Shown: positions 8,064 to 38,358 of the stretch, piece by piece
Numbering within the stretch: position 1 is the stretch's first letter
Layout of the letters: the number at the start of each line of letters is the position of its first letter
Assembly (NCBI GenBank): GCA_902569095.1
Contig: CACFSX010000002.1
Span: 40,161 to 104,160 of the forward strand
Direction of reading: 5' to 3'
Length of the DNA: 64,000 nt
Origin: an uncultured Alphaproteobacteria bacterium
GTDB taxonomy: Bacteria; Pseudomonadota; Alphaproteobacteria; Methylaequorales; Methylaequoraceae
Notes under the pieces: generated by a model
Database searches by the model: none
Told to the model about the DNA's origin: nothing
What the model saw: only the letters and a program-made list of their open reading frames with translations
Made by a program: the position numbers and the translations under genes

Positions 8064-8116
8064 TACACTTGTAAATTTTATCTTGTGTTTTTTTTATTTA
8101 ATATTAAAAAACTAAT

Positions 8117-14992: not shown

Positions 14993-16790
14993 AACTCTAG
15001 AAAATGTATTTGGGTTTTCCTCTTTTAGACCAGGGCAAGAGGAAATTATTAATCATTTAATGCAGAAGAAAAAACTATTAGCAGTTATGCCCACAGGAGC
15101 AGGAAAATCTTTATGCTTTCAACTCCCAGCCTTGCTCTTTGAAAATCAGACTATTGTGGTGTCTCCACTTTTAGCTCTTATGGACGACCAAGTTATCGGC
15201 TTGAAGGATTTGGGTGTTAAGGCTGAACGAGTTCACTCTGGAATGGCTATGACCGAGAGAGAACAAGTATGGGAGGATTTTAAAAATAAAATAATTAAAA
15301 TTTTATACATCTCGCCTGAATCTTTAATGCGTAATGAAATGATATGCGCATTAAAGCCATTGAATATTAGTATGTTTGTTGTTGATGAAGCTCATTGTAT
15401 TTCTAAATGGGGGAGTGATTTTAGAAGAGAGTATGAACTCTTAAAAGAACTTCAAAATCATTTTCCTGAAGCAGTTATTTCAGCATTTACTGCAACAGCT
15501 GATGAAGAAACACGTAGCGACATTAACAACAAATTAACTAATGGCAAAGGTAAAATATTTCTTCATGGTTTTAATCGTCCTAACCTCTCTTTAGCTGTGC
15601 AACAAAAAACTAACAACTGGAAAGCTCAACTTCTTGAATTCTTAGAAAATAGAAAAAATCAATCAGGTATTGTGTATTGTTTGTCTCAAAAACTCACTGA
15701 ACAATGCTCTGAATTTTTGAGATCAGAGGGATTCAAGGCATATCCGTTTCATGCTGGATTAGATACTCAGGTAAAAATTGATACCCAAGATAAATTTATG
15801 ACAGAAGACAATATTGTAGTTTGTGCGACAATAGCGTTTGGAATGGGGATTGATAAAGCTGATGTTAGGTATATAGCTCATATAAGTTTGCCTAGTAGTA
15901 TGGAAGCTTTCTATCAGGAAATTGGAAGAGCTGGGCGAGACGGCCTAGAGGCTGATACTTTACTAATTTTTGGTTTACAGGATTTATTTCAACGCAAACG
16001 TTTTATTGATATGAGCGATGCCCATGATAGTTTTAAAATTAAAGAGCATAAACGATTAGATGCATTGATCGCGTATTGTGATTCGGCTACTTGTAGGCGT
16101 CAAACATTATTATCTTATTTTAAAGAAACCTGCGAAATATGTGGTGTGTGTGATAATTGTCTTAATCCTCCTCAAATGATTGAAGGAACAGAGTATGCAC
16201 AGATGGTTTTATCAGCTATATATCGTACAGGTCAATACTTTGGTTCGGGACATATTGTTGATGTGCTGAGAGGGGTTTTAAGTGACAAAGTCAAAGCAAA
16301 AGGACACGACACAATTAAAACATTTGGAGTAGGACGAACAGCTTCGACTGATTTTTGGAAAACATTTATTCGTCAGATGGTGTCAGCAAATTACTTGCTT
16401 ATTAATATTCAGCGTTATGGTGCATTACAAATTACATCAAAGGGCGAAATGGTTCTTAAAGGAGAGGACGAATATTTTTATCGTAAGATCGTATTTAATC
16501 AGCCTATTAAAACAAAAAGGATTAAACCTGAAACTATTGATAGTGAAACACTTGATGATGAAAAAGAATTATTCTCAGCATTAAAATCTAAACGTTTGGA
16601 ATTGGCTCGCAAAAGGCGAGTTCCTGCTTACATAATTTTTCCAGATTCGACTCTTCATCAAATGCTACTTCATAAACCCCAAACAATCTGGGAGCTGGGA
16701 AAGCTAAATGGAGTAGGGCCACAAAAGTTAGAAAAATATGGCGAAGCTTTTTTATCTATTATTACAAACGAAAAATACTCTAATGATTAG
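14976..16790 (+). CDS. recQ: ATP-dependent DNA helicase RecQ
   Basis: FRPGQEEII, MPTGAGKSLCFQ, VDEAHCISKWG, a Zn-binding Cys cluster (CRRQ..C..C..CDNC), and a C-terminal HRDC-like segment (LKSKRLELARKRRVPAYIIF). Confidence 0.95.
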   Translation: MNELAKTLENVFGFSSFRPGQEEIINHLMQKKKLLAVMPTGAGKSLCFQLPALLFENQTIVVSPLLALMDDQVIGLKDLGVKAERVHSGMAMTEREQVWEDFKNKIIKILYISPESLMRNEMICALKPLNISMFVVDEAHCISKWGSDFRREYELLKELQNHFPEAVISAFTATADEETRSDINNKLTNGKGKIFLHGFNRPNLSLAVQQKTNNWKAQLLEFLENRKNQSGIVYCLSQKLTEQCSEFLRSEGFKAYPFHAGLDTQVKIDTQDKFMTEDNIVVCATIAFGMGIDKADVRYIAHISLPSSMEAFYQEIGRAGRDGLEADTLLIFGLQDLFQRKRFIDMSDAHDSFKIKEHKRLDALIAYCDSATCRRQTLLSYFKETCEICGVCDNCLNPPQMIEGTEYAQMVLSAIYRTGQYFGSGHIVDVLRGVLSDKVKAKGHDTIKTFGVGRTASTDFWKTFIRQMVSANYLLINIQRYGALQITSKGEMVLKGEDEYFYRKIVFNQPIKTKRIKPETIDSETLDDEKELFSALKSKRLELARKRRVPAYIIFPDSTLHQMLLHKPQTIWELGKLNGVGPQKLEKYGEAFLSIITNEKYSND

Positions 16791-19975: not shown

Positions 19976-20033
19976 CCTTAGTGAGTGGTGCCGCTTGAGA
20001 GATTTGAACTCCCGACCCACTGATTACAAATCA
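19976..20033. repeat. Island-end direct repeat: displaced 3' part of tRNA-Thr (att site)
   Basis: 58/58 identity with 35719-35776 (ccttagtgagtggtgccgcttgagagatttgaactcccgacccactgattacaaatca). Covers the tRNA from the anticodon loop to CCA plus 10 bp. Confidence 0.92.
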
Positions 20034-20198
20034 TTTTTAATGCTGTTTCATCCCGTTTCATTTAGCCTTATATAGTCTTATTTATAGCAATATAATCAAT
20101 TGCTTATTGCACAAACCTAAATCAAATTGTATCATTTAATTTTAATGTGACTTACGCATTTTGGAGCCCCAGTGGAGCCCCAGATTAGATTATATTAT

Positions 20199-21341
20199 AT
20201 GTTAAATGATCGTCAAATTACCCATATTAAACCCCCAGTAAAAGGACGTAAATCATATGGCGATATCAATGGATTAAGTTTACGCGTAACATCGACCAAT
20301 CACAAAAGTTGGAGTATTCAGTATCGCGTTAATGGTCGTAAATTGCGATTAACATTAGGTAATTACCCCACACTATCATTAAAGGATGCACGTCAGCTCA
20401 CCACAGAAAAGCTCAATAGCATCTATAAAGGTCAAGATCCTCAACATGAAAAGAATGAAGCTAAAGTCAATAATTTTGCGTACTTTGTTGAGCTTTATAT
20501 GGAAAACCACGTGCGCATAAACCTGAAGAGCAGGTATGAGGTTGAGCGTATCTTTAATAATTATTTCGTTAGTAAATTGGGGAGCATAGCTATTAACCAG
20601 ATTACAAAGCAACATATTCTTAGGATTACTGATGATTTGGTGGCAAAGGGGAAGGGGGTTCAGGCTAATCGTCTTTTATCATACATTAAATCAATGTTTA
20701 AATGGTGTGTACAGCGCGATTATCTTGCAATCAATCCTATTGATTCTCTAGCCAAACCATTTAAAGAGAAATCACGTGATAGGGTACTTACACTCCAAGA
20801 AATTAGGGCTATTTATGAAGCGTGTGGCAAGGTGGATCCTATTCAAGGGCATTTGATTAAGTTCTTAATCCTGTCAGGACAACGCATTAATGAGATTACC
20901 AACTTAAAATGGTCTGATATCAATAATGATAACTTTGAAATACCTAAAGAACGTTCTAAGAATATGCAGAAGATAATTACACCCTTAACTACCCATATGA
21001 AAGATATATTAAGTCTAATGTCTCAACGAGACAGTTACATATTCTCATATGATGGTCTCAAGCCGCTTAACTGTTTTAGTCAGCTAAAGAAACGCCTTAT
21101 TTACCATTCAGGGGTCACAAATTGGACGTATCATGACTTTAGACGCTCAATGGGAACATTCCTCGGTGATAACGGTTTTAATAAGGATAGGATTATGACT
21201 GTTCTCAATCACACCGATAGCTCGGTTACCTCAATATATAATCGCTCACATCAGTTTAAACAAAAGTTAGAAGCGCTCAATTTTTGGAACGAACATTTAA
21301 TAGATAAGGGTATAGGTGGGGGGAGGGCCTACAGCGTATAA
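20199..21341 (+). CDS. int: Tyrosine recombinase, P4-type integrase (Arm/DUF4102 N-terminal domain)
   Basis: N-terminus LNDRQITHIKPPVKGRKSYGDINGLSLRVTSTNHKSWSIQYRVNGRKLRLTLGNYP. Catalytic SGQRINEI, HDFRRS and VTSIYNRS (Tyr). ATG at 20199 preferred over the GTG at 20172. Confidence 0.9.
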   Translation: MLNDRQITHIKPPVKGRKSYGDINGLSLRVTSTNHKSWSIQYRVNGRKLRLTLGNYPTLSLKDARQLTTEKLNSIYKGQDPQHEKNEAKVNNFAYFVELYMENHVRINLKSRYEVERIFNNYFVSKLGSIAINQITKQHILRITDDLVAKGKGVQANRLLSYIKSMFKWCVQRDYLAINPIDSLAKPFKEKSRDRVLTLQEIRAIYEACGKVDPIQGHLIKFLILSGQRINEITNLKWSDINNDNFEIPKERSKNMQKIITPLTTHMKDILSLMSQRDSYIFSYDGLKPLNCFSQLKKRLIYHSGVTNWTYHDFRRSMGTFLGDNGFNKDRIMTVLNHTDSSVTSIYNRSHQFKQKLEALNFWNEHLIDKGIGGGRAYSV

Positions 21342-21363: not shown

Positions 21364-21858
21364 TTAAGATTTTTCTTCCACTTTTTTATTGGAGTAGTGT
21401 TGCGTAAACTTGTTCTTTTCTAACTTCCATACTTCGATTTCGATATCTTGGGTTTCTTTGCGTTGACGTACACTTTCGGTAAACACCTCATTTTTTTTAA
21501 AGTTAAGTACTAGTCCCGTTTTAATTTTTTTGATGATAGCGTTGTCATTTTTTGCAGCTGAGCGTAGGTAGTTTCTTAGTTGTTGTCGGTGTTCCTCTCC
21601 GATCCCAGAGCCAACTTTCGTTTCAATAATAACAGCTTCTTTTAAATCCATACAGGGAGGAATGAGAAAATCAAGCTCATGAAGACCGATAGGATGATTG
21701 TCGTAGAAGAGTTCAAGACCTGCCTCTCTCATAAAATCAATTTTATTTTTTCTTAATTCAACGCCTAACGCAGTTTGGAAATGTTCTTCTTTTAAGCCTG
21801 AGAGTTGTTTAAAAACTTTCTCTGCAAGACCCTCTATTTTTTTCAAAAATAAATTCAT
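21364..21858 (-). CDS. GxxExxY-family protein (PD-(D/E)XK nuclease superfamily)
   Basis: GLKEEHFQTALGVELRKNKIDF...HELDFLI...AVIIETKV...HRQQLRNYLRS...GLVLNF follows the GxxExxY family layout (D...E-x-K core). Confidence 0.65.
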   Translation of the reverse strand: MNLFLKKIEGLAEKVFKQLSGLKEEHFQTALGVELRKNKIDFMREAGLELFYDNHPIGLHELDFLIPPCMDLKEAVIIETKVGSGIGEEHRQQLRNYLRSAAKNDNAIIKKIKTGLVLNFKKNEVFTESVRQRKETQDIEIEVWKLEKNKFTQHYSNKKVEEKS

Positions 21859-21906: not shown

Positions 21907-22797
21907 ATGGAAAATAAGTTTTTTTTCTTAAGTTTAAATCAACTTGAGTTTAATACTTTCTCTAGAGAAGTTTTCGAACAAATTCCTGTGGGAAGTTCTC
22001 AAGAAGATATTTGTAAATTTTTTAATAATTTAGATAATAATTCCTTACTAGACGACATTTTAAAAAATGGAATAATTGAGCCATTAAAAGTAAAACCTAA
22101 AAAAAATAACAAATATCTAAAAAATAGATTTAGTGTTATTGAGGGAAATAGACGACTGGCAGCAATGATTACTTTAAATAAAGACCATTTAAAAAAGTAT
22201 GAAAAAAATCCTCAAAAATTTAAACCTCTTCCAACTTGGTTAACGAGGCTTCCTTGTTCACTAGATGATGGTAAAGGAAATTACGATGATATGGATGGTT
22301 ATTTCAAAAAAGCTATAGAACAGTGGGAAAGTAAAAAACTTGAATTTAAGTCATCACTAAATAAGAATTTTCATACCCAGTCAAGTCCATGTGAAATAAT
22401 GAGGTATGAAACTCTTCTTACAGTGAATGCTTTTTTAAATACTAATGATGGTAATCTTATTATTGGTGTTAGAGATAACAAACAGGTTGTTGGAATTGAA
22501 AAGGACGATTACTATGATAATGATAAATACATGACTAAACTTGAAAATATCTTATCATCTTCCATGGGACCGGAATATTCAAAATATTATGAAATTGAAA
22601 TTCATCCATATGAAGGAAAAAAACTGTGTTTAGTAAAATGTCAAAAAAGTGAAAGTCCAGTCTTTCTTAAATATAAACCGTACAATAAAAAAAAAAATAG
22701 ACCTGATAACACAGAAGACTTTTATATTAGAAAAAATAGTGGGTCTCAAATTTTAAAGCCAAGCTCAATGACTAAGTATATAAATGATCATTTTTAG
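21907..22797 (+). CDS. ParB/Srx-fold domain fused to an AlbA_2 (Schlafen-like) domain
   Basis: N-terminal IIEPLKVKP...FSVIEGNRRLAAMITL (ParB box). C-terminal ESKKLEFKSS...VNAFLNTNDGNLIIGVRDNKQVVGI...FYIRKNSGS (AlbA_2 signature). Confidence 0.7.
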   Translation: MENKFFFLSLNQLEFNTFSREVFEQIPVGSSQEDICKFFNNLDNNSLLDDILKNGIIEPLKVKPKKNNKYLKNRFSVIEGNRRLAAMITLNKDHLKKYEKNPQKFKPLPTWLTRLPCSLDDGKGNYDDMDGYFKKAIEQWESKKLEFKSSLNKNFHTQSSPCEIMRYETLLTVNAFLNTNDGNLIIGVRDNKQVVGIEKDDYYDNDKYMTKLENILSSSMGPEYSKYYEIEIHPYEGKKLCLVKCQKSESPVFLKYKPYNKKKNRPDNTEDFYIRKNSGSQILKPSSMTKYINDHF

Positions 22798-22812
22798 TAA
22801 GAGGAGTATGAT

Positions 22813-23898
22813 ATGAAATTTAAGATGTTACCCATTGATAAAATTTTAATGAACCCGGGAAACCCTAGAATGGCTTTTGATGATAATTTTTCAGGTTATG
22901 ACAAAATACCTGTTGAAAAAATTGAATTAAAACAACCTGATATTCTGAGTTGGTATGATTTAACTGCTGATGACGATGTGAATGAGGATAGAGAATTGGG
23001 AAGGCAATATTCGTATCATCGAGCTGGACTAAGGGATTCCATTGAAATTGAAGGAATTCAGGACCCTATTAAAGTTCAGGAATTAGACAATGGTCAATTT
23101 CTTGTTGTTGACGGAAATACTCGGTTATCAATTGCCAAGGAACTTGTTAAAAGTGACGAAAAATTCAAAGAAGTCCCATGTTTTATAATAAGTGATTATC
23201 AAGAATCAAATTTTCATAAAATACAATTAACTCAGCATGTAGTTGGTTCCAAACCATGGGATATTTTTTGTAGAGCTAGATACTTACATCACTTAAAAAA
23301 AACAAATCTGATGGAATTAACTCATATTCTTAATATTTGTGGTATGGCAAACACTAGAAAATATAAACTAGAAATTGCTTCTTATGAACAAATGATGGAG
23401 TGGAAGAAAATTTGTGATGATGATTCAGTTGAAGCGGTAAAGAATAAAAACCTTCAAATGTGGGATACGACTAGATTTAGTTACTTTTTAGAATTCCAAA
23501 AAAAAATAAATATTTTTAATGATATTGTCTATCCCCCTGAGGAGTTTAATAAACATATGAGACAAAATCTCATTGATAAAGGAGCAGATGTTAGAAGGCT
23601 TCCTGATATATGGCAAAATACAGACGATCCCGAGAAAAGGATAAGAAAAATTTTTCTTGAAAAAGGCACTCAAGCAGCGATTAAAGAACTTGATAATAAA
23701 TCAAAAGATAAGAGTGATAACAGTATAATTAACACTGCTGAATACTTAACGGCTGCTATAAATTCCATGCGCAACGAAGAAAGAGAAAAATTTATGGAGG
23801 AACAAGGTGATAAAAAAATTGAAATTCTATCTAACTGTTCTGATGAACTAATTGATTTTATAAAAGATTTAGAGCGTTATCTAAGAATTAGTAGATAA
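22813..23898 (+). CDS. ParB/Srx-fold domain protein 2
   Basis: LPIDKILMNPGNPR ... IEGIQDPIKVQELDNGQFLVVDGNTRLSIAKEL. AGGAG sits 7 nt upstream. The long C-terminal region is unassigned. Confidence 0.7.
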   Translation: MKFKMLPIDKILMNPGNPRMAFDDNFSGYDKIPVEKIELKQPDILSWYDLTADDDVNEDRELGRQYSYHRAGLRDSIEIEGIQDPIKVQELDNGQFLVVDGNTRLSIAKELVKSDEKFKEVPCFIISDYQESNFHKIQLTQHVVGSKPWDIFCRARYLHHLKKTNLMELTHILNICGMANTRKYKLEIASYEQMMEWKKICDDDSVEAVKNKNLQMWDTTRFSYFLEFQKKINIFNDIVYPPEEFNKHMRQNLIDKGADVRRLPDIWQNTDDPEKRIRKIFLEKGTQAAIKELDNKSKDKSDNSIINTAEYLTAAINSMRNEEREKFMEEQGDKKIEILSNCSDELIDFIKDLERYLRISR

Positions 23899-24369
23899 AT
23901 GGCTGAGTCAACTTCGCATTTCTTTTATAAGAGAATTTTATATGAACATGTTGAAAAATTTTTGCAAAAGAAAAGCATTTGCCTAAAGGATTTAGATAAT
24001 GATTATGAAGTATATATGGAGTTACAAGAGCAAGGGTTATACACAAGAAGATATCCAACAAAAAATTTGAACGGATATATACCTGACTTTTTTTTTTCTT
24101 CATTTAGAAACAAAATTTTATATGTAGGCGAAGCAAAGATAATCTCTGATTTTAATAGAGATAAAAAACTTCTCAATGGAAATATTTCGCAAATAAAAAA
24201 AGGCTTTAAGTTTATCTTTGAAAATAATTACAAAGATGTAGATCATATTTTTTTTTTTAGTGTGCCTTTAAGATATAAAATGAGTGTATTGAACACTTTT
24301 GAAAAGATTCTTTTTGAATTTAAATTAGAATTTAATAGTTCACTAAATTTTAGGATAATTGTTATTTGA
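23899..24369 (+). CDS. Small PD-(D/E)XK-like putative nuclease
   Basis: GYIPDFFF...(16 aa)...ILYVGEAKI fits PD...(D/E)xK spacing. The start abuts the upstream stop (TAAATG). Motif-level call only. Confidence 0.45.
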   Translation: MAESTSHFFYKRILYEHVEKFLQKKSICLKDLDNDYEVYMELQEQGLYTRRYPTKNLNGYIPDFFFSSFRNKILYVGEAKIISDFNRDKKLLNGNISQIKKGFKFIFENNYKDVDHIFFFSVPLRYKMSVLNTFEKILFEFKLEFNSSLNFRIIVI

Positions 24370-25832
24370 TGAATAAAAGAGAATTTGATTCAAAAACAAC
24401 AGCATTTGATTTTCAAAGCAGAGCTATTAAGCTTTTAAAAAAGTTAGATTATGGGGGGATTTTTTTTGAGCAAGGGCTAGGAAAAACAAAAATTGCTATT
24501 GAACTTATACTTTACTGGCTGAAAGAAAGACAAGTTGATTTAGTAATTGTAGTCACTAAAAAAGGGCTTATTAAAAATTGGGAAGAAGAAATATCTTTAC
24601 ATAGTTTTCTTTCGCATGCTGTTTTACAACAAAACAGAAAAATGAGTAGTGCTCTTTTTTTATCTGGTATTAATCTTTTGATTACAAATTACGAAGTAAT
24701 TAATAGTCAGCACAGAAAACTATTACCATTATCTAGATTAAAAAAACTAGCAATAATTCTTGATGAATCCGCTAAAATTAAAAATCCTAATTCTAAGCTT
24801 TCCAAAATTTTCTTTTCGTTGATAGATATCTTTAAAAAAAGATTTATTTTGACTGGCACTCCATCAGCCAACAGACCTTATGACATTTGGTCACAAATAA
24901 AGTTCCTAGATAATGGTATTTCTTTAAATGTTCCATATGAGATGTTTGTTGAACAAACAGATTTGAAAAACACCTTAAACGATGATGTTCAAGGTCAAGA
25001 AGCTTTTTCAGATAACCTTACTTCAATATTCAGTAAGATTGATGCATTTTGTATTAGAGAAACTAAAGAAGAGAATTTAAAAGATTTACCTGAAAAAAAA
25101 TTTTTGGAAATAAAATGTCCATGGGAGAAAAACCAAAAAGAACTATATGAAAAATTTAAAGAAGAATTTAAAGCATTTGTAAAAAAAAATAATTCAATGG
25201 TTGAAGAAAATACTAGTAACATCTTAAAAAGAATAATGCGATTAATGCAAGTTACTTCAAATCCGTCTTTGGTTGATGATAATTATTCTAATATAACTGA
25301 AAAATATAATGAGCTTAAGAAATTAATTTACAGCATAATTGAAAAAGATGAAAAGTGTATTGTTTGGTCATCCTACGTAAAAAATACTGATTTCTTACAC
25401 TCACACTTTGAAAAACTTGGAGCAGTTAAGATTCATGGAAAAATTAATATAGATAAAAGAAATGAAAATATTTATGAATTTAAAAATAATAAAGATATAA
25501 GAATTTTGTTTGCAACACCTCAATCTTGTAAAGAAGGATTAACACTTACTGTTGCTAATCATTGTATTTTTTTTGATAGAACGTTAAGTCTTGACGACTA
25601 TCTTCAATCTCAAGACAGGATTCATAGAATATCTCAAAAAAAACAATGTTTTATTTATAACTTTATAATTGAAAACTCCATTGATGTTTGGGTTGACAAA
25701 CTAATTGATGCCAAAAATAATGCTGCTAGAGTAGTAATGGGGGATATTAATATTGATACATTCAAAGACTCTATGGACTATGATTTTGCAGCAATTATAA
25801 AATCCATATTATATGATAATAAAGAAAAATGA
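24369..25832 (+). CDS. SNF2-family helicase/translocase
   Basis: Motif I EQGLGKTKIAI, motif II ILDESAKIKN, motif III LTGTPSANRPYDIWSQIKFL, motifs V/VI CKEGLTLTVANHCIFFDRTLSLDDYLQSQDRIHRISQKK. The ATG at 24369 overlaps the upstream TGA. Confidence 0.85.
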   Translation: MNKREFDSKTTAFDFQSRAIKLLKKLDYGGIFFEQGLGKTKIAIELILYWLKERQVDLVIVVTKKGLIKNWEEEISLHSFLSHAVLQQNRKMSSALFLSGINLLITNYEVINSQHRKLLPLSRLKKLAIILDESAKIKNPNSKLSKIFFSLIDIFKKRFILTGTPSANRPYDIWSQIKFLDNGISLNVPYEMFVEQTDLKNTLNDDVQGQEAFSDNLTSIFSKIDAFCIRETKEENLKDLPEKKFLEIKCPWEKNQKELYEKFKEEFKAFVKKNNSMVEENTSNILKRIMRLMQVTSNPSLVDDNYSNITEKYNELKKLIYSIIEKDEKCIVWSSYVKNTDFLHSHFEKLGAVKIHGKINIDKRNENIYEFKNNKDIRILFATPQSCKEGLTLTVANHCIFFDRTLSLDDYLQSQDRIHRISQKKQCFIYNFIIENSIDVWVDKLIDAKNNAARVVMGDINIDTFKDSMDYDFAAIIKSILYDNKEK

Positions 25833-26851
25833 CAAAAGAGTTTAATATTGTTAACAGAGAAATTCCAGTAGAACAAATTGAGTTTTGGCCAAACAACCCA
25901 CGACTTTTAGAATTCACCAGAACAAACACTGAACTTCAACCTATTGACATTAAGAATTATTTTTTAAAAAAGGAAACTATTGAAGAATTCAAAATTAAAG
26001 AATTAGCTGAAAATATTATTGATTTTAAAATGGTCCATGACCCATTGCATCTTCAACCTGTCAGTGGACTGAAGAATAAATTTACACTCTTTGAGGGTAA
26101 CAGAAGGTTAGCAGCTCTATTTTGGATTAAACATGAATATGGTGAGCAATTTAAAGACATAATTAACAAAGTACACTGTATGGTTTATGAAAATCTATCT
26201 GATGTAAATAGAGATAAATTATTAGCTAATTGGCATGAAATTGGGAAACTTCAGTGGACTCCTTTTGCAAGAGGTCTAAAGATGTTAAATGAGAAAAATC
26301 AAGGTATTTATAGCGAAAAACAAATGTGTGAAATCTATAAAAAAGGATCCCAAGAGATTAAACAAATCATTTCAGCTACACAATTTGTTTTACAGCATAG
26401 ACTCAAAACCGACCAATTTAGTCATTCCTTAGAATTTCAAAAGATTAAAAGCACAACTGGAAAATTTAAAGACCTGAGTATAGGGGATAATGAGCTTGAA
26501 AAATTTGAAACCAAATTAGCTGCTGAATTTAAAAATATTAAGGGCTCTGATGTCCGAATACTCGGAAAAATGTATGATAAAAGACCTGGAAGGGCTAAGA
26601 TTAAGAGTTATATAAATAACGAAATACCCTATATAGACTTAATCAAATACAGTTTTCGAGCAGGTGATAGAAGTCGATTAGTTAATAAGTTTGAGCAAAT
26701 AGCAGATGAATTAATTGATTTAGTACCTGACGCAATTAAAAAACTTGAAGATAAAAAAAATCACGAAATTGCTGTTAAAATAGTCAAAAAGATAAAAATT
26801 ATTCAGGAAAGATTAAAAGATTGTCAAAAAGCCTATAAAAATAGAAAATAA
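25829..26851 (+). CDS. ParB/Srx-fold domain protein 3
   Basis: IPVEQIEFWPNNPRL ... DPLHLQPVSGLKNKFTLFEGNRRLAALFWI. ATGA overlap with the SNF2 gene. Confidence 0.7.
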   Translation: MTKEFNIVNREIPVEQIEFWPNNPRLLEFTRTNTELQPIDIKNYFLKKETIEEFKIKELAENIIDFKMVHDPLHLQPVSGLKNKFTLFEGNRRLAALFWIKHEYGEQFKDIINKVHCMVYENLSDVNRDKLLANWHEIGKLQWTPFARGLKMLNEKNQGIYSEKQMCEIYKKGSQEIKQIISATQFVLQHRLKTDQFSHSLEFQKIKSTTGKFKDLSIGDNELEKFETKLAAEFKNIKGSDVRILGKMYDKRPGRAKIKSYINNEIPYIDLIKYSFRAGDRSRLVNKFEQIADELIDLVPDAIKKLEDKKNHEIAVKIVKKIKIIQERLKDCQKAYKNRK

Positions 26852-26894
26852 TGCTATATATTGTTATTAATTACAATGTTTAACTAAATATAGT

Positions 26895-28508
26895 ATGGCA
26901 AATAAAAATATCTTGTTAATTGAACCTGGGTACAAAAACAAATATCCTCCTTTGGGTTTAATGAAAATAGCTCAATATCATGGAGCCAACGGTAAAAAAG
27001 ATAATGTTAAATTTATTAAAGGTGAAGATAAAAGTACGGAAAGCATTGTTTGGGATAGAATTTACATTACTACATTGTTTTCTTTTGAATGGAATAAAAT
27101 TTCCGAAACAATTGAATATGCTTCCAAGTTAGTTAATCAACAGCACGATAAGATTTTTGTTGGAGGAATAGCGGCATCTTTAATGCATGAGAAGTTTTTG
27201 TCTCAAGACAAATGGAGAGGAATTCGTTTCATTCAAGGCTTACTTGACAAATCTCCAGCAGAATCGTTACAACTCGATGATTTTGAAGAGGAGCTATATT
27301 CCGATGATTTAGATAGCACACCGATTGAAGACCTCATACCGGATTACAGTATACTTGAACAGATTGATTATAAATATCCGGTTTATGATGCTTATTTTGC
27401 TTATGCAACAAGAGGGTGTGTTAGAAAATGTGCTTTTTGTGGCGTACCAAAACTTGAAGGTGGAATGCGTGAAATGCCGCCGCTTAGTAAAATAGTTGGT
27501 GGTATTGAAAAATTGTATGGCCCAAAAAAGGATTTAATTTTGATGGACAATAATGTTGTAGCTTCTCCACGATTAAAAGAGATAATTGATGAAGTAGTGG
27601 ATTTAGGTTTTGCAAAAGGGGCATCTATGGTCAACCCTAAAACAGGTAATAAAGTTCAAAGGCGTGTTGATTTTAATCAGGGTGTAGATGCCAGAATTCT
27701 CGCCAAATCAGAGCATTTTATGAAACAATTAAGTAGAATATGTTTATCACCGCTCAGGATTGCTTTTGATCATGTTGGTTTAATGAAACCCTATGAGCAA
27801 GCTGTTCGGTACGCAAGCGCTTCAGGTTTGAATTTTTTATCAAATTACATGCTGTATAATTTTCATGATACTCCAAATGATTTGTTTCAAAGAATGAGAA
27901 TTAACGTCAGCCTTAATGAAGAATTAGGTACCCAAATTTATTCTTTTCCAATGAGGTATCAACCAACAGATAGACCAGATAGGGGACATGTTGGTGAGCA
28001 TTGGAATAAATATTATTTGCGCTCAATTCAAATTATTCTCCAAGCAACTCATGGAGTTGTTAGTGGTGCACCTGAATTTTTCAAAAAAGCGTTTGGTGAT
28101 ACTGAGGATGAATTTCTAAAAATTCTAAGAATGCCACATGATTTTATTTTTAATAGAGATTGGTTTGAGAAATTCGGTGGTCGAGCTAAACTAGATGAGT
28201 TTAATTCACAAATTAACAAACTAAATGAATCGGAGGTTGAAGAACTAATGAATTTTTTAGCATCACACTTCCCTGCAGAGTATTTGAACGAATCAAAAAA
28301 AATTAAAAATAATAAGATTAGAAATATGATTCCTTTTTATAAACATATGACAATGGAAGAAAATAGAAAAATTTGGTCTTCGCAAAAGCAAATAAAAAAT
28401 AATCTAAAAATTGCTATGGCTGACGATGAAATAGTTGAAGATGCAGGACTAGATCATAATCCGGATAGTGAGAGTGAAGAAAATATGAGAAAAGTTATAG
28501 CAAGATAA
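26895..28508 (+). CDS. Radical SAM enzyme with an N-terminal B12-binding-like (class B type) domain
   Basis: CxxxCxxC cluster motif in YATRGCVRKCAFCGVPK. N-terminal ILLIEPGYKNKYPPLGLMKIAQYH...IFVGGIAASL resembles the Rossmann-like B12-binding domain layout. No SPASM-type Cys clusters seen. Confidence 0.8.
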   Translation: MANKNILLIEPGYKNKYPPLGLMKIAQYHGANGKKDNVKFIKGEDKSTESIVWDRIYITTLFSFEWNKISETIEYASKLVNQQHDKIFVGGIAASLMHEKFLSQDKWRGIRFIQGLLDKSPAESLQLDDFEEELYSDDLDSTPIEDLIPDYSILEQIDYKYPVYDAYFAYATRGCVRKCAFCGVPKLEGGMREMPPLSKIVGGIEKLYGPKKDLILMDNNVVASPRLKEIIDEVVDLGFAKGASMVNPKTGNKVQRRVDFNQGVDARILAKSEHFMKQLSRICLSPLRIAFDHVGLMKPYEQAVRYASASGLNFLSNYMLYNFHDTPNDLFQRMRINVSLNEELGTQIYSFPMRYQPTDRPDRGHVGEHWNKYYLRSIQIILQATHGVVSGAPEFFKKAFGDTEDEFLKILRMPHDFIFNRDWFEKFGGRAKLDEFNSQINKLNESEVEELMNFLASHFPAEYLNESKKIKNNKIRNMIPFYKHMTMEENRKIWSSQKQIKNNLKIAMADDEIVEDAGLDHNPDSESEENMRKVIAR

Positions 28509-28513
28509 TTATC

Positions 28514-29806
28514 ATGAATAGTACCTCTAAACAAATAACAGTCGGTAAAGATATTCTAGAGTTGCTTACCTCTGGGATGTATTTAGATCCACTCACAATA
28601 TATCGTGAATATATACAAAACTCTGCTGATTCAATAGAAAAAGCTGTAGATAAAGGTTTGCTAAAGTCAGTTGAAGATGAAGGTAAAATAAAAATAAATA
28701 TTAATTTCATAGATAGATCAATTGTTATTGAAGATAACGGTACAGGTTTATCAAGTAATGATTTTTTAAGAATACTTCTTTCATTTGGAAATAGTCCCAA
28801 AAGAGGAACAGATGCAAGAGGATTTAGAGGTATTGGACGTTTAGCAGGATTAGCATACTGTCAAGAACTAATCTTTACTAGTAAATGTGCAGGTGAAAAA
28901 AATATAAATACTTTAAAATGGGATTGTCGAAAATTAAAAAAGTTATTGGTTGATCATACGATTAAATCAGATTTAAAAAAAATAGTTCACGACTCAACAA
29001 TTTATGAACAACAAGAAACAAATGAAACAAATGCTCATTATTTTAAAGTCGAGTTAAAGAAGATACTAAGACTAAAAAACGATGTTCTACTTAACAATAT
29101 GATGATCGAGAAGTATCTATCTCAAGTTGCTCCAGTCCCTTTTTCCGATAGCTTTAAATTTAAAGATAGAATAAATGAAATTCTTAGAGAAAAAATCAAA
29201 GTTTCGTATCATAATATTTTACTTAATGGTGAAACGGCGATAACTAGAACATTTAGAAATTCGTATGACTTTAGTTCAACAACTACTGATTATATTAATG
29301 GTGTTGAAAAGTTAGAGATAGTGGATAATGATGATGAACTTTTGGCTTACGGCTTTTTGTTAAATCATGGGTATCTAGGAGCTATAAATAAAAGTACTGC
29401 ACTTCCTGGACTAAGAGCACGAATTGGTAATATTCAAATAGGTGAAAATACAATTTTTTTAGATCAATTTTCAGAATCCAGATTCAATGCATGGACTATT
29501 GGTGAGCTTCACATTTTGAGTCCCAAACTTGTTCCTAATGGAAGACGAGATGATTTTGAGAAAAATAACTTTTACTATAATTTTCTTAATTATATCTCTC
29601 TAATAACCAGGCGTATTTCAGAAATCTGCAGACAAAAATCACAAGTAAGAAATCAAGTAAAGGTAGTTGAAATTGAGAATGTTAAATCAAAAAAAAGAGA
29701 ATCAGCTGCTAATAACATTATAGATGTGGCAAGTAAATTCATTAAAAACAAAGAGGAAATAAAAAAAGTTAGAAATACAATTTATGATGAGATATCAAAA
29801 CTTTGA
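28514..29806 (+). CDS. GHKL-superfamily ATPase (Hsp90/MORC-like, HATPase_c_3 type)
   Basis: N box YREYIQNSADSIEKA, G1 box IVIEDNGTGLS, G2 box RGFRGIGRLAGLAYC. Begins 5 nt after the radical SAM gene. Confidence 0.8.
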   Translation: MNSTSKQITVGKDILELLTSGMYLDPLTIYREYIQNSADSIEKAVDKGLLKSVEDEGKIKININFIDRSIVIEDNGTGLSSNDFLRILLSFGNSPKRGTDARGFRGIGRLAGLAYCQELIFTSKCAGEKNINTLKWDCRKLKKLLVDHTIKSDLKKIVHDSTIYEQQETNETNAHYFKVELKKILRLKNDVLLNNMMIEKYLSQVAPVPFSDSFKFKDRINEILREKIKVSYHNILLNGETAITRTFRNSYDFSSTTTDYINGVEKLEIVDNDDELLAYGFLLNHGYLGAINKSTALPGLRARIGNIQIGENTIFLDQFSESRFNAWTIGELHILSPKLVPNGRRDDFEKNNFYYNFLNYISLITRRISEICRQKSQVRNQVKVVEIENVKSKKRESAANNIIDVASKFIKNKEEIKKVRNTIYDEISKL

Positions 29807-33262: not shown

Positions 33263-35359
33263 TTAACGTCTTAATCGTTCATAGTATCGATGTAACTTAT
33301 TACCAACAATTTCTTCAGTTGTATTTCCATTTCGAATATATATTTTTTCCTCCTTATTATCGAGTAATCTCGCAGGTTGATATTTCTTTGGAAGTTTTTT
33401 TACTTTTACAATGCATAGCTCAACATCATTTTCCTTTTCAATTTCAACATGAATAAAATCTTTACAGGCCAATGGTAAAATATAGCTATTAATTTGAGAA
33501 TTTATAAATTGGAGATAAGAATCCTTACTTTTAAATTTAATTGTACTTTTTAAGTCATGTTGGATTCCAACATATTCTTTTATATGATCTTTTTCATGGA
33601 TTCCTATTACCAACTCTCCACCATTACTATTAAGAAAAGCAACGATTGCTTTTAATGTTTGATTTTTTATAAAGTTATAGACTTGTTTTTCACCTGAAAA
33701 CTTTTCTTTTCCTAGGAAGTAAAAATTACCTTCTTTTTTTGGAAATTCTGGATAGGGAGTCCACACACTCGCCTTAAACTCAAATTCAGAATTCTCGTTT
33801 TGCTTTATTTTGTTTTTTTTTCCAGATTGATTGTATATTTCCTCCATTGTTTTAAATTGTTGTTTTAATTTTGCTTGTTCGAGGAATAACTCTTCAACTT
33901 TAGCCTCCATTTCTGTAAGCTTTTTTCCTTTAATATCAATATTGATTGGTCTGGCTATTTTATCTTCTGGAAAAGTTAGAATATTTGTTTTATTTGTCCT
34001 AATATTTATGACGTATTCAAAAAAATCTTCATTTTGAGAAAATAGTCTAATGATTTTTTTATAAATACTTGATTCTTTATCACAGTACTTAAATTGATTT
34101 AATAATGCATCTCTTAATTCTTTATCAACAACTTCCTTGTTTAGTAATTTTTTTTTTCTTCTAAATTCATCAAGGCCGATTTCCAAAAGTTTTAAATGAG
34201 ATTCGCAAAGACTATTAAACTGTAAGCTATTACGTAAGCAATTTATTTTTTCTTCTCCAAAATCTAAAGTTGATGCCAACCCTGTGAATGCGTCATAGAA
34301 GACATTCGCTACTTCGAAATAAGCTTCTGAAAAACCCTCTAATTCTTTTTGTATTTCCTCATTCTCATCCCAATTTTCATAGATATTATTCTCATAAATT
34401 ATTTCGGAATGCTGATCTAAAGTCATTATTATTTGCTCATAAATGTCCTGAGCTTCTTTTTTTTTTCCTTTTTCAAGATATATTTCCGCAATAATCAAAC
34501 AAGCAGTATGATGGTATTCACCATAGTCATATTCAAATAAGTCTGAAGGACCGTAATCGCCCTTAGATATTTCTGCCCATTTAAGAGCCTCATTCTTGTT
34601 TGCGACTAAATATCCTGATAATCCATGAAAGTAAAGATTAGCCAATACAGAAGCATATTCATCTTTAAAGACTGCTGCGTATTCAATTAATAAATCACGC
34701 GCTTGATTAAATTGTTTGTCGGTAACATCTTCACGAGGTGAGTAAGGACGAAAACTAAAAATTTGGTAAGTATCAAAAATAAATACTTCTAAGTACCTTA
34801 GCATGTAGGGGTTTTCACCATAATCAAACTTCGAACTATCTTTTACTTTTAATACTAGTTTTGCTAGGTCAAAAAGAATTTGCTCATATTCTTTATTAGA
34901 AACAAGGTTTTGTTCGCTGCTATTCATATTTTTATAATAAAGTTTTAATAACTGCTCTCTTGCCTTTATGTGATCTGGGTTTGATTTTATAGCTATTTTT
35001 AAATAATGAGCTTGTTCAGAAATATCTTCACGCATAATACTTGCATATAGATATGCAGAAGGACAATGATTTTTGTCGGCACATTTTTTAAAGGTTTCTA
35101 AAGCAAAGCCAATATTTTTTGACAAATCTTTTGTGAGTGATTCCTTCTTATTTGTTTTATCTAATGAACTGAAAAATAAAATTACTGCTACTGTAAATTG
35201 ACTCTTTAAGTCATCTTCTTTAAATTTATCAATAAGAATTTTTTGCTTTACTGTTCTTGGGTTTAAAATCTCATTACTATCTATGAAATTTTCTATTCGT
35301 TTAAAAACTGAATCATCAACCTCTAGGTCTAAATTTTCAATATTCACATTAAGCTTCAT
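33263..35359 (-). CDS. Sel1/TPR-like repeat, coiled-coil and C-terminal AlbA_2 (Schlafen-like) domain protein
   Basis: C-terminus SEFEFKASV...LKAIVAFLNSNGGELVIGIHEKDHIKEYVGI...IYIRNGNTT (AlbA_2). N-terminal half has Sel1-like units (CPSAYLYASIM..., LANLYFHGLSGYLVANKNEALKWAE). Central EAKVEELFLEQAKLKQQFKTMEE is coiled coil. Confidence 0.65.
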   Translation of the reverse strand: MKLNVNIENLDLEVDDSVFKRIENFIDSNEILNPRTVKQKILIDKFKEDDLKSQFTVAVILFFSSLDKTNKKESLTKDLSKNIGFALETFKKCADKNHCPSAYLYASIMREDISEQAHYLKIAIKSNPDHIKAREQLLKLYYKNMNSSEQNLVSNKEYEQILFDLAKLVLKVKDSSKFDYGENPYMLRYLEVFIFDTYQIFSFRPYSPREDVTDKQFNQARDLLIEYAAVFKDEYASVLANLYFHGLSGYLVANKNEALKWAEISKGDYGPSDLFEYDYGEYHHTACLIIAEIYLEKGKKKEAQDIYEQIIMTLDQHSEIIYENNIYENWDENEEIQKELEGFSEAYFEVANVFYDAFTGLASTLDFGEEKINCLRNSLQFNSLCESHLKLLEIGLDEFRRKKKLLNKEVVDKELRDALLNQFKYCDKESSIYKKIIRLFSQNEDFFEYVINIRTNKTNILTFPEDKIARPINIDIKGKKLTEMEAKVEELFLEQAKLKQQFKTMEEIYNQSGKKNKIKQNENSEFEFKASVWTPYPEFPKKEGNFYFLGKEKFSGEKQVYNFIKNQTLKAIVAFLNSNGGELVIGIHEKDHIKEYVGIQHDLKSTIKFKSKDSYLQFINSQINSYILPLACKDFIHVEIEKENDVELCIVKVKKLPKKYQPARLLDNKEEKIYIRNGNTTEEIVGNKLHRYYERLRR

Positions 35360-35718: not shown

Positions 35719-35776
35719 CCTTAGTGAGTGGTGCCGCTTGAGAGATTTGAACTCCCGACCCACTGATTACAAATCA
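35719..35776. repeat. Island-end direct repeat inside the intact tRNA-Thr (att site)
   Basis: Identical to 19976-20033. Confidence 0.92.
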
Positions 35777-35804
35777 GTTGCTCTACCAACTGAGCTAAAG
35801 CGGC
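35729..35804 (-). tRNA. tRNA-Thr (UGU)
   Basis: Reverse complement GCCGCTTTAGCTCAGTTGGTAGAGCAACTGATTTGTAATCAGTGGGTCGGGAGTTCAAATCTCTCAAGCGGCACCA. Anticodon loop TTTGTAA. Confidence 0.9.
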
Positions 35805-36540: not shown

Positions 36541-38358
36541 ATGAAATTAAGAAGATGGCAACAAAAAGTAATTGATGAATTTCCTGAAATTACAAAAAAT
36601 TACAAGAAGTTTATCTTAAAAGCTCCAACTGGAGCTGGTAAGACTGTTTTAGCAAGTGAGATAATAAATAGATTTTATAAAAATAAAAAAATAGTTGTTC
36701 TTTGTCATAGATTAGTTTTATTAGAACAGCTTGAAAAAGGGTTATCTACCGATCACAAAGTAAAAAAACTTGGTCTATCCGAAGAGGGAACTCCATTTGA
36801 TAATTATGATGTTTTAATCTCAACTAATTTAAGGTCCAGAGATTTTCTTCAAAATGCAATCAAACATTGTGATTTACTCATAATTGACGAGGCACATAGA
36901 GTTTCACCAAACGGACAAGCTTACAAGGAGTTACTTGATCAATTTGACAAAGAATCTGCAGAACAATCTAAACTTCTTGGTCTAACTGCCTCTCCTGAGA
37001 GAAGAACAGGTGATCAAAAAGACCAACTGGGTTTAGCATTTGATGCTATCATAGATTGTGCTGACATTGAGGAATTAATCAGAGAAGGTGTTCTTGTTCC
37101 AGCTGATTATCGCTCGTTTTTTATTCACGATTTAGAACTCGATAATATGGATATTTCTACAGGCGACTTTCCAATAGAACAATTGTCTAATGCCATTATT
37201 AAGTCTTCAATGATTGAATATGCTATAAACATATATCTTGCAGAAACAAAAAAAATGAAAGACAAACCTATTTCTGCGTGGTTTTGTCCAGATATTTTAG
37301 TTGCTGAGGAAACCAAAAAGCAGGTAGCAGACAAAAATCTCAATGTTGAGTTAATTACTGCTAAAACTCCAATTAAAGAAAGATTAGAGATACTTAAAAA
37401 GCATGAGGTTGGTGATCTTGAGTGTTTGATTTCCGTAGGAGTTCTCTCTGAAGGGTGGGATAACCCAAATTGCAATATTATTGTTCATCTAAGGCCAACT
37501 TTATCAAAAGTATTTTGGGGACAATCAGTTGGACGGGGTTTAAGATCGGCTGATGGTAAGACTAAATGTTTGGTTATAGATGTAAGCTCAAACTTCACAA
37601 CCTTTGGGCCTGTTGAACAACTTAAGTGGAAACTAATGAATCATAGAAAATCTTACTTGGAATTTAAAAATAGGTTTAATTGGGTGAGTAAACAGCAATT
37701 TGTAAAAGACAGAGATTACACTTATTTACTTTGTGAAGGACCCAGTGACACTGGGAAAAGATGTTCACTTGTATACAAAAAAAAGCAACTTTCAGACGAG
37801 GCATGTCCAATATGTAAGTCTTATGCTTCAACAGACCTTTACAAAGATAATAAAATTGAAAAACCTAAAAATGATAACAGTCTTCACAAGATTTTTTTTG
37901 AAAAAGTACCAAAAATTTTTGAGGATATGAATAAAAATATATGGCAAAATATGGAAGCTACGGCTTGGCGAGATGCTAATATTTATGAAAAATTATTTCT
38001 AACATTTTGTTTGGCTTTCGACTTTGTATCAGGTGAAATGACTAATTCTGAACATGAGTTCTGGAACCTAACCTTGGATGCTGAAAAAAAAATACGAGAG
38101 TTTTTATTTGAAAGGGAAATTACTATTCCACAGCAGGAAGAGTTTATATTTACTACATTAGCAGACGGATTAAGTAAAGGTAGAGTTATAAGACCAGTTC
38201 AAACAAATTATGGTATTGCTTTGTGCGGTGAAAATTTTGTTAAAAATTCAAGTGATGAAAATGAAAGAAAATTTCAAAAAGCTTTACAAGTAATTGAAAG
38301 AATCGCAGCGATGGGTGTAACTAATACAGAGGAATTGCCATACTATAAGATAAACTAA
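36541..38358 (+). CDS. Superfamily-2 DEAH helicase (type III restriction Res-like core) with a C-terminal Zn-ribbon extension
   Basis: Walker A APTGAGKT and motif II IIDEAHR. Helicase C motifs (SVGVLSEGWDNPN, QSVGRGLR). CEGPSDTGKRC...CPIC, then ~190 aa unassigned. Confidence 0.75.
   Translation: MKLRRWQQKVIDEFPEITKNYKKFILKAPTGAGKTVLASEIINRFYKNKKIVVLCHRLVLLEQLEKGLSTDHKVKKLGLSEEGTPFDNYDVLISTNLRSRDFLQNAIKHCDLLIIDEAHRVSPNGQAYKELLDQFDKESAEQSKLLGLTASPERRTGDQKDQLGLAFDAIIDCADIEELIREGVLVPADYRSFFIHDLELDNMDISTGDFPIEQLSNAIIKSSMIEYAINIYLAETKKMKDKPISAWFCPDILVAEETKKQVADKNLNVELITAKTPIKERLEILKKHEVGDLECLISVGVLSEGWDNPNCNIIVHLRPTLSKVFWGQSVGRGLRSADGKTKCLVIDVSSNFTTFGPVEQLKWKLMNHRKSYLEFKNRFNWVSKQQFVKDRDYTYLLCEGPSDTGKRCSLVYKKKQLSDEACPICKSYASTDLYKDNKIEKPKNDNSLHKIFFEKVPKIFEDMNKNIWQNMEATAWRDANIYEKLFLTFCLAFDFVSGEMTNSEHEFWNLTLDAEKKIREFLFEREITIPQQEEFIFTTLADGLSKGRVIRPVQTNYGIALCGENFVKNSSDENERKFQKALQVIERIAAMGVTNTEELPYYKIN

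Follow-up and report, generated by a model that had tools for sequence, protein, structure and literature searches.

What does a radical S-adenosylmethionine (rSAM) enzyme do in an operon of ParB-like, SNF2 and Hsp90-like proteins? The question is raised by a gene at positions 26895-28508 of a 64,000-nucleotide stretch of DNA from an uncultured alphaproteobacterium (contig CACFSX010000002.1 of assembly GCA_902569095.1), hereafter the window, in which a sequence-only reading had recognised a cobalamin-dependent type of rSAM enzyme with DNA or a nucleotide as its most plausible substrate. Our preferred answer, to which we give nearly an even chance, is that the enzyme, the GHKL ATPase encoded directly downstream of it and a DGQHR/ParB protein would together form the DNA self-marking core of a restriction-like defence system. 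This model is put forward because the rSAM-GHKL pair is constant, the modules around it are swappable, the genes are carried on mobile elements and the recurrent partners belong to the DGQHR/ParB type.

The rSAM family and its constant GHKL partner

Gene neighbourhoods were analysed in 80 genome loci, together with plasmid and metagenome loci, in which open reading frames (ORFs) were called and clustered and from which profiles were built. A GHKL ATPase of about 520 aa with a HATPase_c_3 domain lies directly downstream of the rSAM gene in all 84 loci by tblastn, and in 74 of the 81 rSAM-bearing loci under strict ORF criteria. Concerning the other partners, a DGQHR/DndB-family protein of about 350 aa (DGQHR350) is encoded directly upstream, usually overlapping the rSAM start, in 55 of 82 loci; the module ParB-like(340) - small(139) - SNF2(493) - ParB-like(340) is present in 43, a PIN_8 protein with a second HATPase_c_3 protein (GHKL2) in 34, and a ~790-aa DGQHR protein ending in a Swt1-like HEPN tail in 17. 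The DGQHR partner matches TIGR03187 at 7e-45 and DpdB models at 7e-11 to 1.6e-17, and GHKL2 has a weak BbrUII/HgiDII match. These companion modules combine freely and on either strand; rSAM and GHKL occur alone in four loci and with only DGQHR added in about nine. Relative to the window proteins, identity is about 62% for rSAM, 43% for SNF2, 40% for GHKL and 25% for ParB.

Past the modules the flanks are heterogeneous, the commonest Pfam families among 129 flanking proteins being integrases, transposases, type IV coupling proteins (T4CP), HerA-like proteins, ArdC and RepA. No B12, cofactor, peptide, metabolic or ribosomally synthesised and post-translationally modified peptide (RiPP) gene recurs among these 129 proteins, which agrees with the earlier statement that the enzyme has neither a peptide precursor nor a cofactor-pathway neighbour. 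As to whether the gene occurs elsewhere without DNA-related neighbours, the 82 loci, drawn from many phyla, keep the GHKL gene together with DGQHR/ParB, SNF2, PIN or HEPN partners. The DNA link drawn in the sequence-only reading is thereby strengthened, and DNA as the substrate is still a matter of inference from this context.

The family is unusually conserved, very widespread and carried on mobile elements. A word-indexed search gave more than 7,900 rSAM homologs, far more than a chance ORF would have, those of Rhizobium, Ensifer, Mesorhizobium and sphingomonads being 61-65% identical over their full length; when 50%-identity representatives were searched exhaustively, 1,711 clusters passed E<=1e-3 and 296 passed E<=1e-30. 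Members are present in at least 571 GTDB species genomes, from groups such as Alpha- and Gammaproteobacteria, Acidobacteriota, Binatia, Verrucomicrobiota, Gemmatimonadota, Eremiobacterota, Latescibacterota and Armatimonadota. Identity across phyla is 59-64%, and mean column identity among 34 members is 75%. Copies lie on plasmid pNL1 of Novosphingobium aromaticivorans and on rhizobial (Rhizobium leguminosarum WSM1325 among them), Mesorhizobium, Bradyrhizobium, Agrobacterium and Roseomonas plasmids, and the gene is also chromosomal in many phyla. NCBI labels the members "radical SAM protein" and nothing further.

At the protein level, the earlier claim of a 537-aa product with a canonical CxxxCxxC motif was confirmed. 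The strand opposite the ORF is closed throughout by stop codons, CVRKCAFC occupies residues 175-182 (C175-x3-C179-x2-C182), and the three cysteines are invariant in an alignment of 34 homologs. Since the only other cysteine of the whole protein is C283, with none in residues 1-174, there is no SPASM/twitch or MiaB-type auxiliary cluster, and the reading had been right in denying a SPASM cluster. Pfam Radical_SAM (PF04055) scores 20.4 bits in the window protein, under the cutoff of 29.5, and 29.9-31 bits in several relatives. The NCBIfam models for ladderane-type B12 rSAM, RimO/MiaB, MgmA-type, PhpK and BzaD enzymes lie hundreds of bits under their cutoffs, and a PDB sequence search gave RimO as the sole match, around the cluster motif (E 8e-4). 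In all, searches of Pfam, NCBIfam, PADLOC, PHROGs and PDB sequences for a named family returned sub-threshold or generic matches only. On these grounds MiaB/RimO-type, SPASM-type, viperin, QueE and HpnJ/BchE-type identities were rejected, and the Pfam, NCBIfam and PDB sequence searches placed the enzyme in no characterised family with a non-nucleic-acid substrate. From its motif and fold, we take the window protein to be a true radical enzyme of the [4Fe-4S]/SAM type, belonging to a distinct family without a name. Its C-terminal tail is variable and disordered (predicted local distance difference test, pLDDT, <50), within which an acidic motif, (E/D)xxVEDAGLD at residues 512-519 (28428-28451), is invariant; this peptide has the look of a short motif on which a partner protein would dock.

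The GHKL partner is called Hsp90-like here, rather than a DNA clamp, because in a PDB search with a 25-member profile the sole matches were to N-domains that bind ATP, those of HtpG, TRAP1, Grp94 and Hsp90 (best E 3e-11). Its nucleotide-binding boxes are present (N-box E32/N36/D39; DNGTG and GFRGIGRLAG), and the remaining residues, some 370, are family-specific with invariant Arg-rich motifs such as NGRRD at 342-346. The window copy is a short form of 430 aa, against about 520 aa, which covers positions 17-431 of the 520-position profile. The GHKL protein of this marine lineage is some 90 aa shorter at its C-terminus than in other phyla.

Several variants of the family were also observed. In a second subfamily, 40-49% identical and found on gut and virome contigs, the operon reads [~390 aa][~570 aa P-loop ATPase][GHKL][rSAM ~620 aa]; the GHKL-rSAM pairing is thus kept in reverse gene order with other partners (L087 454-6730; L098-L104). 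Its rSAM proteins carry an insert of about 70 aa in the Rossmann domain and another of this size in the rSAM core, and a Pfam search with the first two genes of this operon gave no match. At the gut locus L087, an AlbA_2+HATPase_c_4 protein (6797-8314) also stands beside the rSAM gene. In one metagenomic representative of 791 aa (P0216) a single polypeptide holds both the C-terminal part of a DGQHR domain and the rSAM enzyme; this may be either a true fusion of the Rosetta-stone kind or an artefact of a frameshift between genes that normally overlap. Five homologs of about 800-825 aa (P0132, P0134, P0148, P0150 and P0159) are extended at the C-terminus by some 350 aa of helical sequence with an internal repeat, for which a domain search gave no match. 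Shorter phage relatives form phrog_9298, which matches rSAM residues 4-378 at E 1.5e-42; such relatives are found in Marinitoga camini virus 1, Clostridium phage phiCT453B and Bacteroides LoVEphage-like phages. The genes beside the rSAM gene of the Marinitoga virus carry HerA and NurA-like annotations, and it is from these annotations only that the first two genes of the gut-subfamily operon are putatively HerA/NurA-like.

Fold and putative cobalamin use

The full-length enzyme was modelled with AlphaFold2 from 34 homologs (pLDDT 77). The model comprises a beta-alpha-beta domain (about residues 1-115), a linker, an rSAM core (about 160-360), a helical bundle (about 372-500) and the disordered tail; modelled alone, the N-domain (1-115) is a five-stranded beta-alpha-beta Rossmann fold (pLDDT 92). 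Class 1 cobalamin-dependent rSAM enzymes have a Rossmann cobalamin domain, an RS domain and a C-terminal helical bundle, with no His ligand (PMC13331322). The window protein has the same order of Rossmann domain, CxxxCxxC core and helical bundle, and like OxsB, TsrM, TokK and MgmA it is without a DxHxxG His-loop, so the layout resembling class B enzymes that had been proposed for its N-terminal segment is borne out by the model and by Foldseek. With the full-length model, the best match was MgmA (9ccb, E 3.6e-7), a B12-dependent C-methylase of MCR glutamine, followed by the B12-dependent OxsB (5ul2, E 4.8e-6) and then an MtaB model, these three being the only PDB fold matches at E<=0.001. Weaker matches to the rSAM core were LipA, GDGT-MAS, HydG and LAM, and a BFVD fold search added nothing specific.

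The top PDB folds for the N-domain are mostly corrinoid-binding: AerR, the Moorella corrinoid protein 1y80, 4jgi, CarH-like proteins, MetH, lysine aminomutase and MCM. Two sequence features point the same way. The family has [ST][ST]L ending strand 3 and an invariant GG past strand 4, which recall the SxL and GG motifs known from classical B12 domains. Also, an invariant aromatic residue, F62, stands in the loop past strand 3, where class 1 enzymes place the residue under cobalt (Asn186 in OxsB, Arg69 in TsrM, Trp76 in TokK; PMC13331322), F62 being comparable to Trp76 of TokK. From the fold and these two motif-like features, cobalamin use by the enzyme is a putative trait, only slightly less probable than its opposite.

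Several observations weigh on the other side or set the enzyme apart from class B. The N-domain fold matches are weak (E 3e-3 to 0.1; TM 0.5-0.6) and interleaved with flavodoxins and Ras. No match was found when the N-domain sequence profile was searched against the PDB, and Pfam B12-binding reaches only 12.7 bits (E=0.12; cutoff 32.1) in the window protein. The beta-hairpin after Rossmann strand 5 is a class 1 feature (PMC13331322), present in OxsB, TsrM and TokK, and is not predicted in the rSAM model. Identity to class 1 enzymes is 11-13%, and the NCBIfam class B models are far below their cutoffs. A need for cobalamin also fits mildly poorly with a spread over very many lineages, streamlined marine bacteria included. 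Finally, known class B enzymes act on small molecules or peptides and are encoded in biosynthetic clusters, whereas the window family sits in a conflict-type operon with ParB, SNF2 and GHKL genes.

As for the MiaB/RimO/MtaB enzymes, they share with the window protein a flavodoxin-like N-domain ahead of the rSAM core, RimO being its best PDB sequence match and MtaB its third structural match. Unlike them, it has no cysteine in residues 1-174 and hence no auxiliary [4Fe-4S] cluster, no TRAM domain match in Pfam, NCBIfam scores of 17-20 bits against cutoffs of 251-357, and a strand-4 motif that is GG rather than Cys-containing. It differs from the SPASM/twitch RiPP maturases in having no Cys-rich C-terminal domain and no recurrent small-peptide or RiPP neighbour.

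A self-marking model and its rivals

According to the proposed mechanism, the rSAM enzyme would work as an obligate pair with its downstream Hsp90-like GHKL ATPase, and this pair would be the conserved core of a modular, horizontally mobile, restriction-modification-like system. A DGQHR/ParB-superfamily NTPase would help the pair, in the canonical DGQHR form in most loci and as the product of 25829-26851 in the window. Acting together, the three would be loaded on host DNA and leave there a covalent mark made by radical chemistry; should cobalamin be bound, this mark would most likely be a C-methylation at an unactivated carbon of a base or sugar. Swappable modules would then attack unmarked DNA, namely ParB-small-SNF2-ParB in the window and PIN plus GHKL or DGQHR-HEPN elsewhere. 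A constant rSAM-GHKL core with variable nuclease and helicase modules matches the combination of a conserved modification enzyme with swappable restriction modules. We infer three things here, namely DNA as the substrate, the self-marking reaction and the anti-phage or anti-plasmid role.

Two known DNA modification systems are built along similar lines. In Dpd, the DpdB ATPase is needed for the insertion of preQ0 into DNA by DpdA, and the SNF2-containing dpdD-K genes restrict (PMC10164549). A DGQHR/ParB-type NTPase thus accompanies a DNA-modifying enzyme there too, with SNF2-type helicases in the companion restriction module (PMC10164549); the DGQHR partner of the rSAM family matches DpdB models, and the window SNF2 gene partly matches DpdE models. 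The differences are that neither the window nor the related loci hold a homolog of DpdA (TGT-like) or DpdC, or preQ0 pathway genes, that the putative modifying enzyme is a radical SAM protein, that the matches are far under equivalog cutoffs and that the window has no canonical DGQHR gene. In Dnd/Ssp, a DGQHR/DndB protein goes with a DNA backbone-modifying machine that includes an Fe-S enzyme and with a separable restriction module, and DndB has a role in phosphorothioation (PMC10853773). Homologs of DndA, DndC, DndD and DndE are absent, and DndC is a PP-loop ATPase, not one of the radical SAM superfamily's members. The rSAM family is wired to its DGQHR/ParB, SNF2, PIN and HEPN partners as the Dpd and Dnd modification enzymes are to theirs.

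Precedents for radical SAM chemistry on DNA itself are few. As of 2021 two such enzymes were known, the spore photoproduct lyase, which acts in repair, and one phage thymidine-hypermodification isomerase; phage M6 gp53 was, spore photoproduct lyase aside, the first rSAM enzyme shown to install a DNA modification, which it does post-replication (PMC8989533). These are the only precedents that we found, and they differ from the window enzyme in being of the SPL type, about 340 aa long, without a B12-like N-domain and without a cellular multi-gene system; their relation to it is detectable at the superfamily level only. No description of the rSAM-GHKL system was found in full-text literature searches, subscription-only papers being outside their reach. 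Ophion, EVE-associated rSAM enzymes and the rSAM clusters of pQBR plasmids were considered as published accounts of it and set aside as different things.

A number of observations count against the self-marking model. DNA modification and defence activity are both proposed from gene context rather than from direct evidence, and PADLOC-DB v2.0.0 has no model for the rSAM or the GHKL protein, its matches being limited to generic SNF2 (ZorD/DpdE/DrmD) and weak ParB (PD-Lambda-5_A, PDC-M38A) models. By sequence, the GHKL protein is closest to Hsp90/HtpG and not to the MutL, MORC or topoisomerase DNA clamps, and its part could lie in maturation or regulation rather than in DNA loading. The window variant has no canonical DGQHR gene and a shortened GHKL. 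Moreover, the phage relatives (phrog_9298; L105-L118) have no GHKL or ParB neighbour; therefore the chemistry of the enzyme is not intrinsically dependent on those partners.

The solitary phage and prophage relatives, which are without DNA-loading partners, would be at home in a viperin-like scheme, in which the rSAM enzyme converts a free NTP or dNTP, or a nucleotide-derived metabolite, into an antiviral analogue or signal, with sensing or regulation left to the GHKL and ParB/DGQHR NTPases and with SNF2, PIN and HEPN proteins as downstream effectors. OxsB, one of the two closest solved structures, is nucleotide-directed, acting on a nucleotide in oxetanocin biosynthesis. Prokaryotic viperins perform rSAM-based anti-phage nucleotide chemistry, and, like Ophion (OpnABC), they are anti-phage systems with experimental support in which a radical SAM enzyme is central; both set a precedent for such a scheme. 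ParB/DGQHR proteins are, besides, NTPases (PMC10853773). This scheme is nevertheless unlikely. Ophion pairs its rSAM enzyme with a PRTase (bioRxiv 2025.09.30.679545) and with a PHP protein, and shares neither a partner nor a sequence match with the window family; viperins are stand-alone enzymes of about 300 aa. PADLOC and NCBIfam reveal no likeness of the window rSAM to components of either. No nucleotide-metabolism gene (kinase, phosphoribosyltransferase or PRTase, phosphatase, Nudix) recurs near the rSAM gene in the loci examined, and the fixed coupling to DNA-associated ParB/DGQHR and SNF2 proteins suits a polymer substrate better.

The loci that have no recognisable nuclease (the four pair-only loci and the nine or so with only DGQHR added), and the fact that rSAM-GHKL is the sole invariant part, would suit a different division of labour, in which the rSAM enzyme is itself the weapon. 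GHKL and ParB/DGQHR would recognise invading DNA, and the 5'-deoxyadenosyl radical would abstract hydrogen from it, with strand breaks, cross-links or abasic lesions as the outcome. In MutL, Topo VI and HgiDII-type enzymes a GHKL ATPase is coupled to a partner that cleaves DNA, and the weak BbrUII/HgiDII match of GHKL2 is in line with this; spore photoproduct lyase, too, directs rSAM radical chemistry at DNA (PMC8989533). However, defence effectors usually vary and sensors are conserved, and here it is the recognisable nucleases (PIN, HEPN, PD-(D/E)XK, ParB) that vary. An identity of 59-64% across phyla would be unusual for a part in direct arms-race contact, and what a B12-type domain would contribute to simple hydrogen abstraction is not obvious. 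We give this weapon scheme a small probability. A similarly small one goes to functions outside defence, in which the pair works for the mobile element itself, in plasmid or island maintenance, in establishment or against restriction, or the rSAM enzyme modifies a protein or RNA with the Hsp90-like protein as chaperone or maturase. Carriage on plasmids, islands and regions resembling integrative and conjugative elements, beside ArdC, T4CP and replication genes, speaks for it, as do the classical role of ParB-like proteins as partition factors, the likeness of the GHKL domain to the HtpG/Hsp90 N-domain and the resemblance of the invariant acidic rSAM peptide to a protein-docking motif. Yet the ParB-like proteins are without their usual ParA partner and are linked to SNF2, PIN_8, HEPN and AlbA_2 proteins, which are typical of conflict systems, the gene set is chromosomal too in many phyla, and, GHKL apart, no candidate protein or peptide substrate co-varies with the rSAM enzyme.

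Returning to the self-marking model, its more specific form is that the rSAM-GHKL pair makes a new radical-derived cellular DNA modification, for instance by cobalamin-dependent C-methylation, as a self-label for the SNF2/ParB, PIN and HEPN modules; this we regard as on the doubtful side. If true, radical SAM enzymes would have their first cellular DNA-modification system, and epigenetic defence a new class that is very widespread. If the rSAM enzyme marks DNA, class-B-like radical SAM chemistry would gain a nucleic-acid substrate, and if it acts on nucleotides or as a radical effector, the immune mechanism would be new all the same. We rate the locus as a multi-gene modification/restriction-like conflict system built on an enzyme without precedent, and the chance of something categorically new once the chemistry is known as substantial. 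The family is directly testable in its culturable carriers, for example Novosphingobium aromaticivorans (pNL1), Rhizobium leguminosarum WSM1325 and the hosts of the Mesorhizobium and Agrobacterium plasmids.

The window operon, its island and the host

The features of the operon and of the island that carries it are listed in Table 1.

Table 1. Operon and island features, in window positions (ParB340, small139 and DGQHR350 are profiles from the related loci).
Feature	Position	Strand	Evidence and remarks
Copy of the tRNA-Thr 3' part + 10 nt (attL-type)	19976..20033	.	58-nt exact repeat; left island border
Tyrosine integrase	20172..21341	+	Phage_integrase 1.2e-19; Arm-DNA-bind_3 5e-19; Phage_int_M 4e-10
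PD-(D/E)XK nuclease-fold protein (PDDEXK_3)	21364..21858	-	PF13366 1.3e-18; island cargo
ParB-N-like + Schlafen/AlbA_2 fusion	21907..22797	+	SLFN_AlbA_2 2.8e-18, residues 141-282; first operon gene in this lineage
ParB-like protein, first ParB340 copy of the SNF2 module	22813..23898	+	ParB340 2.9e-59, full length
Small protein of the SNF2 module, 156 aa	23899..24369	+	small139 1e-9
SNF2-family helicase/translocase	24366..25832	+	SNF2-rel_dom 2e-32; Helicase_C 1.8e-16; family profile 6e-200
Second ParB340 copy, directly upstream of rSAM	25829..26851	+	ParB340 3e-38, full length; DGQHR350 1.2e-8
Radical SAM enzyme	26895..28508	+	ATG start; 537 aa
Hsp90-like GHKL ATPase (HATPase_c_3)	28514..29806	+	HATPase_c_3 9e-14; family profile 4e-160
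TPR + Schlafen/AlbA_2 protein, 698 aa	33263..35359	-	SLFN_AlbA_2 3.9e-11, residues 559-683; weak TPR; cargo
tRNA-Thr(TGT) 35729-35804 with attR-type repeat 35719-35776	35719..35804	-	ARAGORN and Rfam; right island border

The operon (21907-29806) reads ParB-N+AlbA_2, ParB340, small, SNF2, ParB340, rSAM, GHKL, and its genes are probably co-transcribed and partly translation-coupled, since the successive intergenic gaps are 15, 0, -4, -4, 43 and 5 nt. The small gene starts directly after the preceding stop and overlaps the SNF2 start by 4 nt, and the SNF2 gene in turn overlaps the second ParB340 gene by 4 nt. Against the family profiles, the window proteins score 958 bits (rSAM) and 523 bits (GHKL). 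Profiles for ParB340 and small139 were built from 43 and 30 loci, respectively. Residues 28-98 of the ParB-N/AlbA_2 fusion match ParB340 at 7e-11, with an EGNRR motif, and the first full ParB340 copy has a DGNTR motif, a Pfam ParB_N match of 1e-3 and a PADLOC PDC-M38A match of 1.2e-7. The SNF2 protein matches PADLOC ZorD (2e-47) and DpdE (4e-36) over part of their length, with GLGKT and DESA motifs. The 156-aa protein has no match in Pfam, NCBIfam, PADLOC or PHROG. By sequence, the catalytic motifs look intact in the GHKL (N-box, G-boxes), SNF2 (GLGKT, DESA) and ParB-like (EGNRR, DGNTR) proteins.

Immediately upstream of the rSAM gene, where a canonical DGQHR/DndB-like gene would be, lies the second ParB340 copy (340 aa; EGNRR motif); its identity as a canonical DGQHR/DndB partner was rejected from the two profile scores in the table. 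Neither DGQHR350, PIN_8 nor the large DGQHR gene is found within the 64-kb window. The same ParB-small-SNF2-ParB-rSAM-GHKL order without a DGQHR gene was found in at least five genome loci (L005, L007, L067, L082, L083), and nine loci carry the window gene set, the SNF2 module being on the opposite strand in some of them. This reduced order occurs in the marine single-amplified genomes (SAGs) AG-337-E20 and AG-359-E17, in Jannaschia, in Nitratireductor and in a Pseudomonadota metagenome-assembled genome (MAG); the SAG AG-892-K07 has the window order, with the small protein not detected.

All six neighbours had been read as DNA-binding or DNA-processing proteins. This stands for the integrase, PD-(D/E)XK, ParB-like and SNF2 proteins and does not for the 156-aa protein, which has no recognisable domain, nor for the GHKL partner, which is Hsp90-like. 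What had been called a purely DNA-centric operon is instead a mobile system of the defence-island type, and its invariant partner is not one of the established DNA-binding proteins.

A 15.7-kb integrative island carries the operon, as 58-nt tRNA-Thr repeats flank the integrase and the operon. The exact direct repeat (19976-20033 = 35719-35776) duplicates the 3' 48 nt of tRNA-Thr(TGT) and 10 nt more, and its attL-type copy sits 138 nt upstream of the integrase gene. The GC content of the island is 26-35% (2-kb windows), similar to that of the flanks. A copy of the integrase in AG-892-K07 (L006) is 90% identical, and the PD-(D/E)XK protein is 83-85% conserved in L005 and L006 and falls outside the family-wide conserved set. 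The island also holds an HTH_36 protein. Two separate Schlafen/AlbA_2 proteins are present, one fused to ParB-N (21907-22797) and one to TPR (33263-35359); the latter is not kept beside the rSAM gene in other loci and probably has a separate function.

Concerning the host, a SAR11-like organism had been supposed earlier. No Pelagibacter-named protein is among the best 120 matches of the methionyl-tRNA synthetase (MetRS), whose closest named proteins come from MAGs labelled "Alphaproteobacteria bacterium" (64%), "Rickettsiales bacterium" (62%) and Nisaea (54%), and the closest named relative of the flanking SF2 helicase is from a Rhodospirillaceae MAG (57%), the helicase search likewise giving no match named Pelagibacter. 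The supposition is thus unsupported, not disproved; the host is a low-GC (about 30%) marine alphaproteobacterium. The rSAM gene says little on its B12 physiology, because it lies on an acquired island.

Outside the island, a RecQ helicase (14976-16790; TIGR01389, 7.5e-209) lies about 3 kb to the left, and a second SF2 helicase of 605 aa (36541-38358) directly to the right, past panD and the tRNA-Thr; both appear to be chromosomal and not island genes. The first 850 or so nucleotides of the window, with ORFs at 21-776 and 80-766, have a GC content of 51-60% against about 30% elsewhere, with an abrupt drop near position 900. They gave no PDB or PLSDB match, and could stem from a chimeric join in the assembly, from contamination or from foreign DNA inserted at the edge of the contig.

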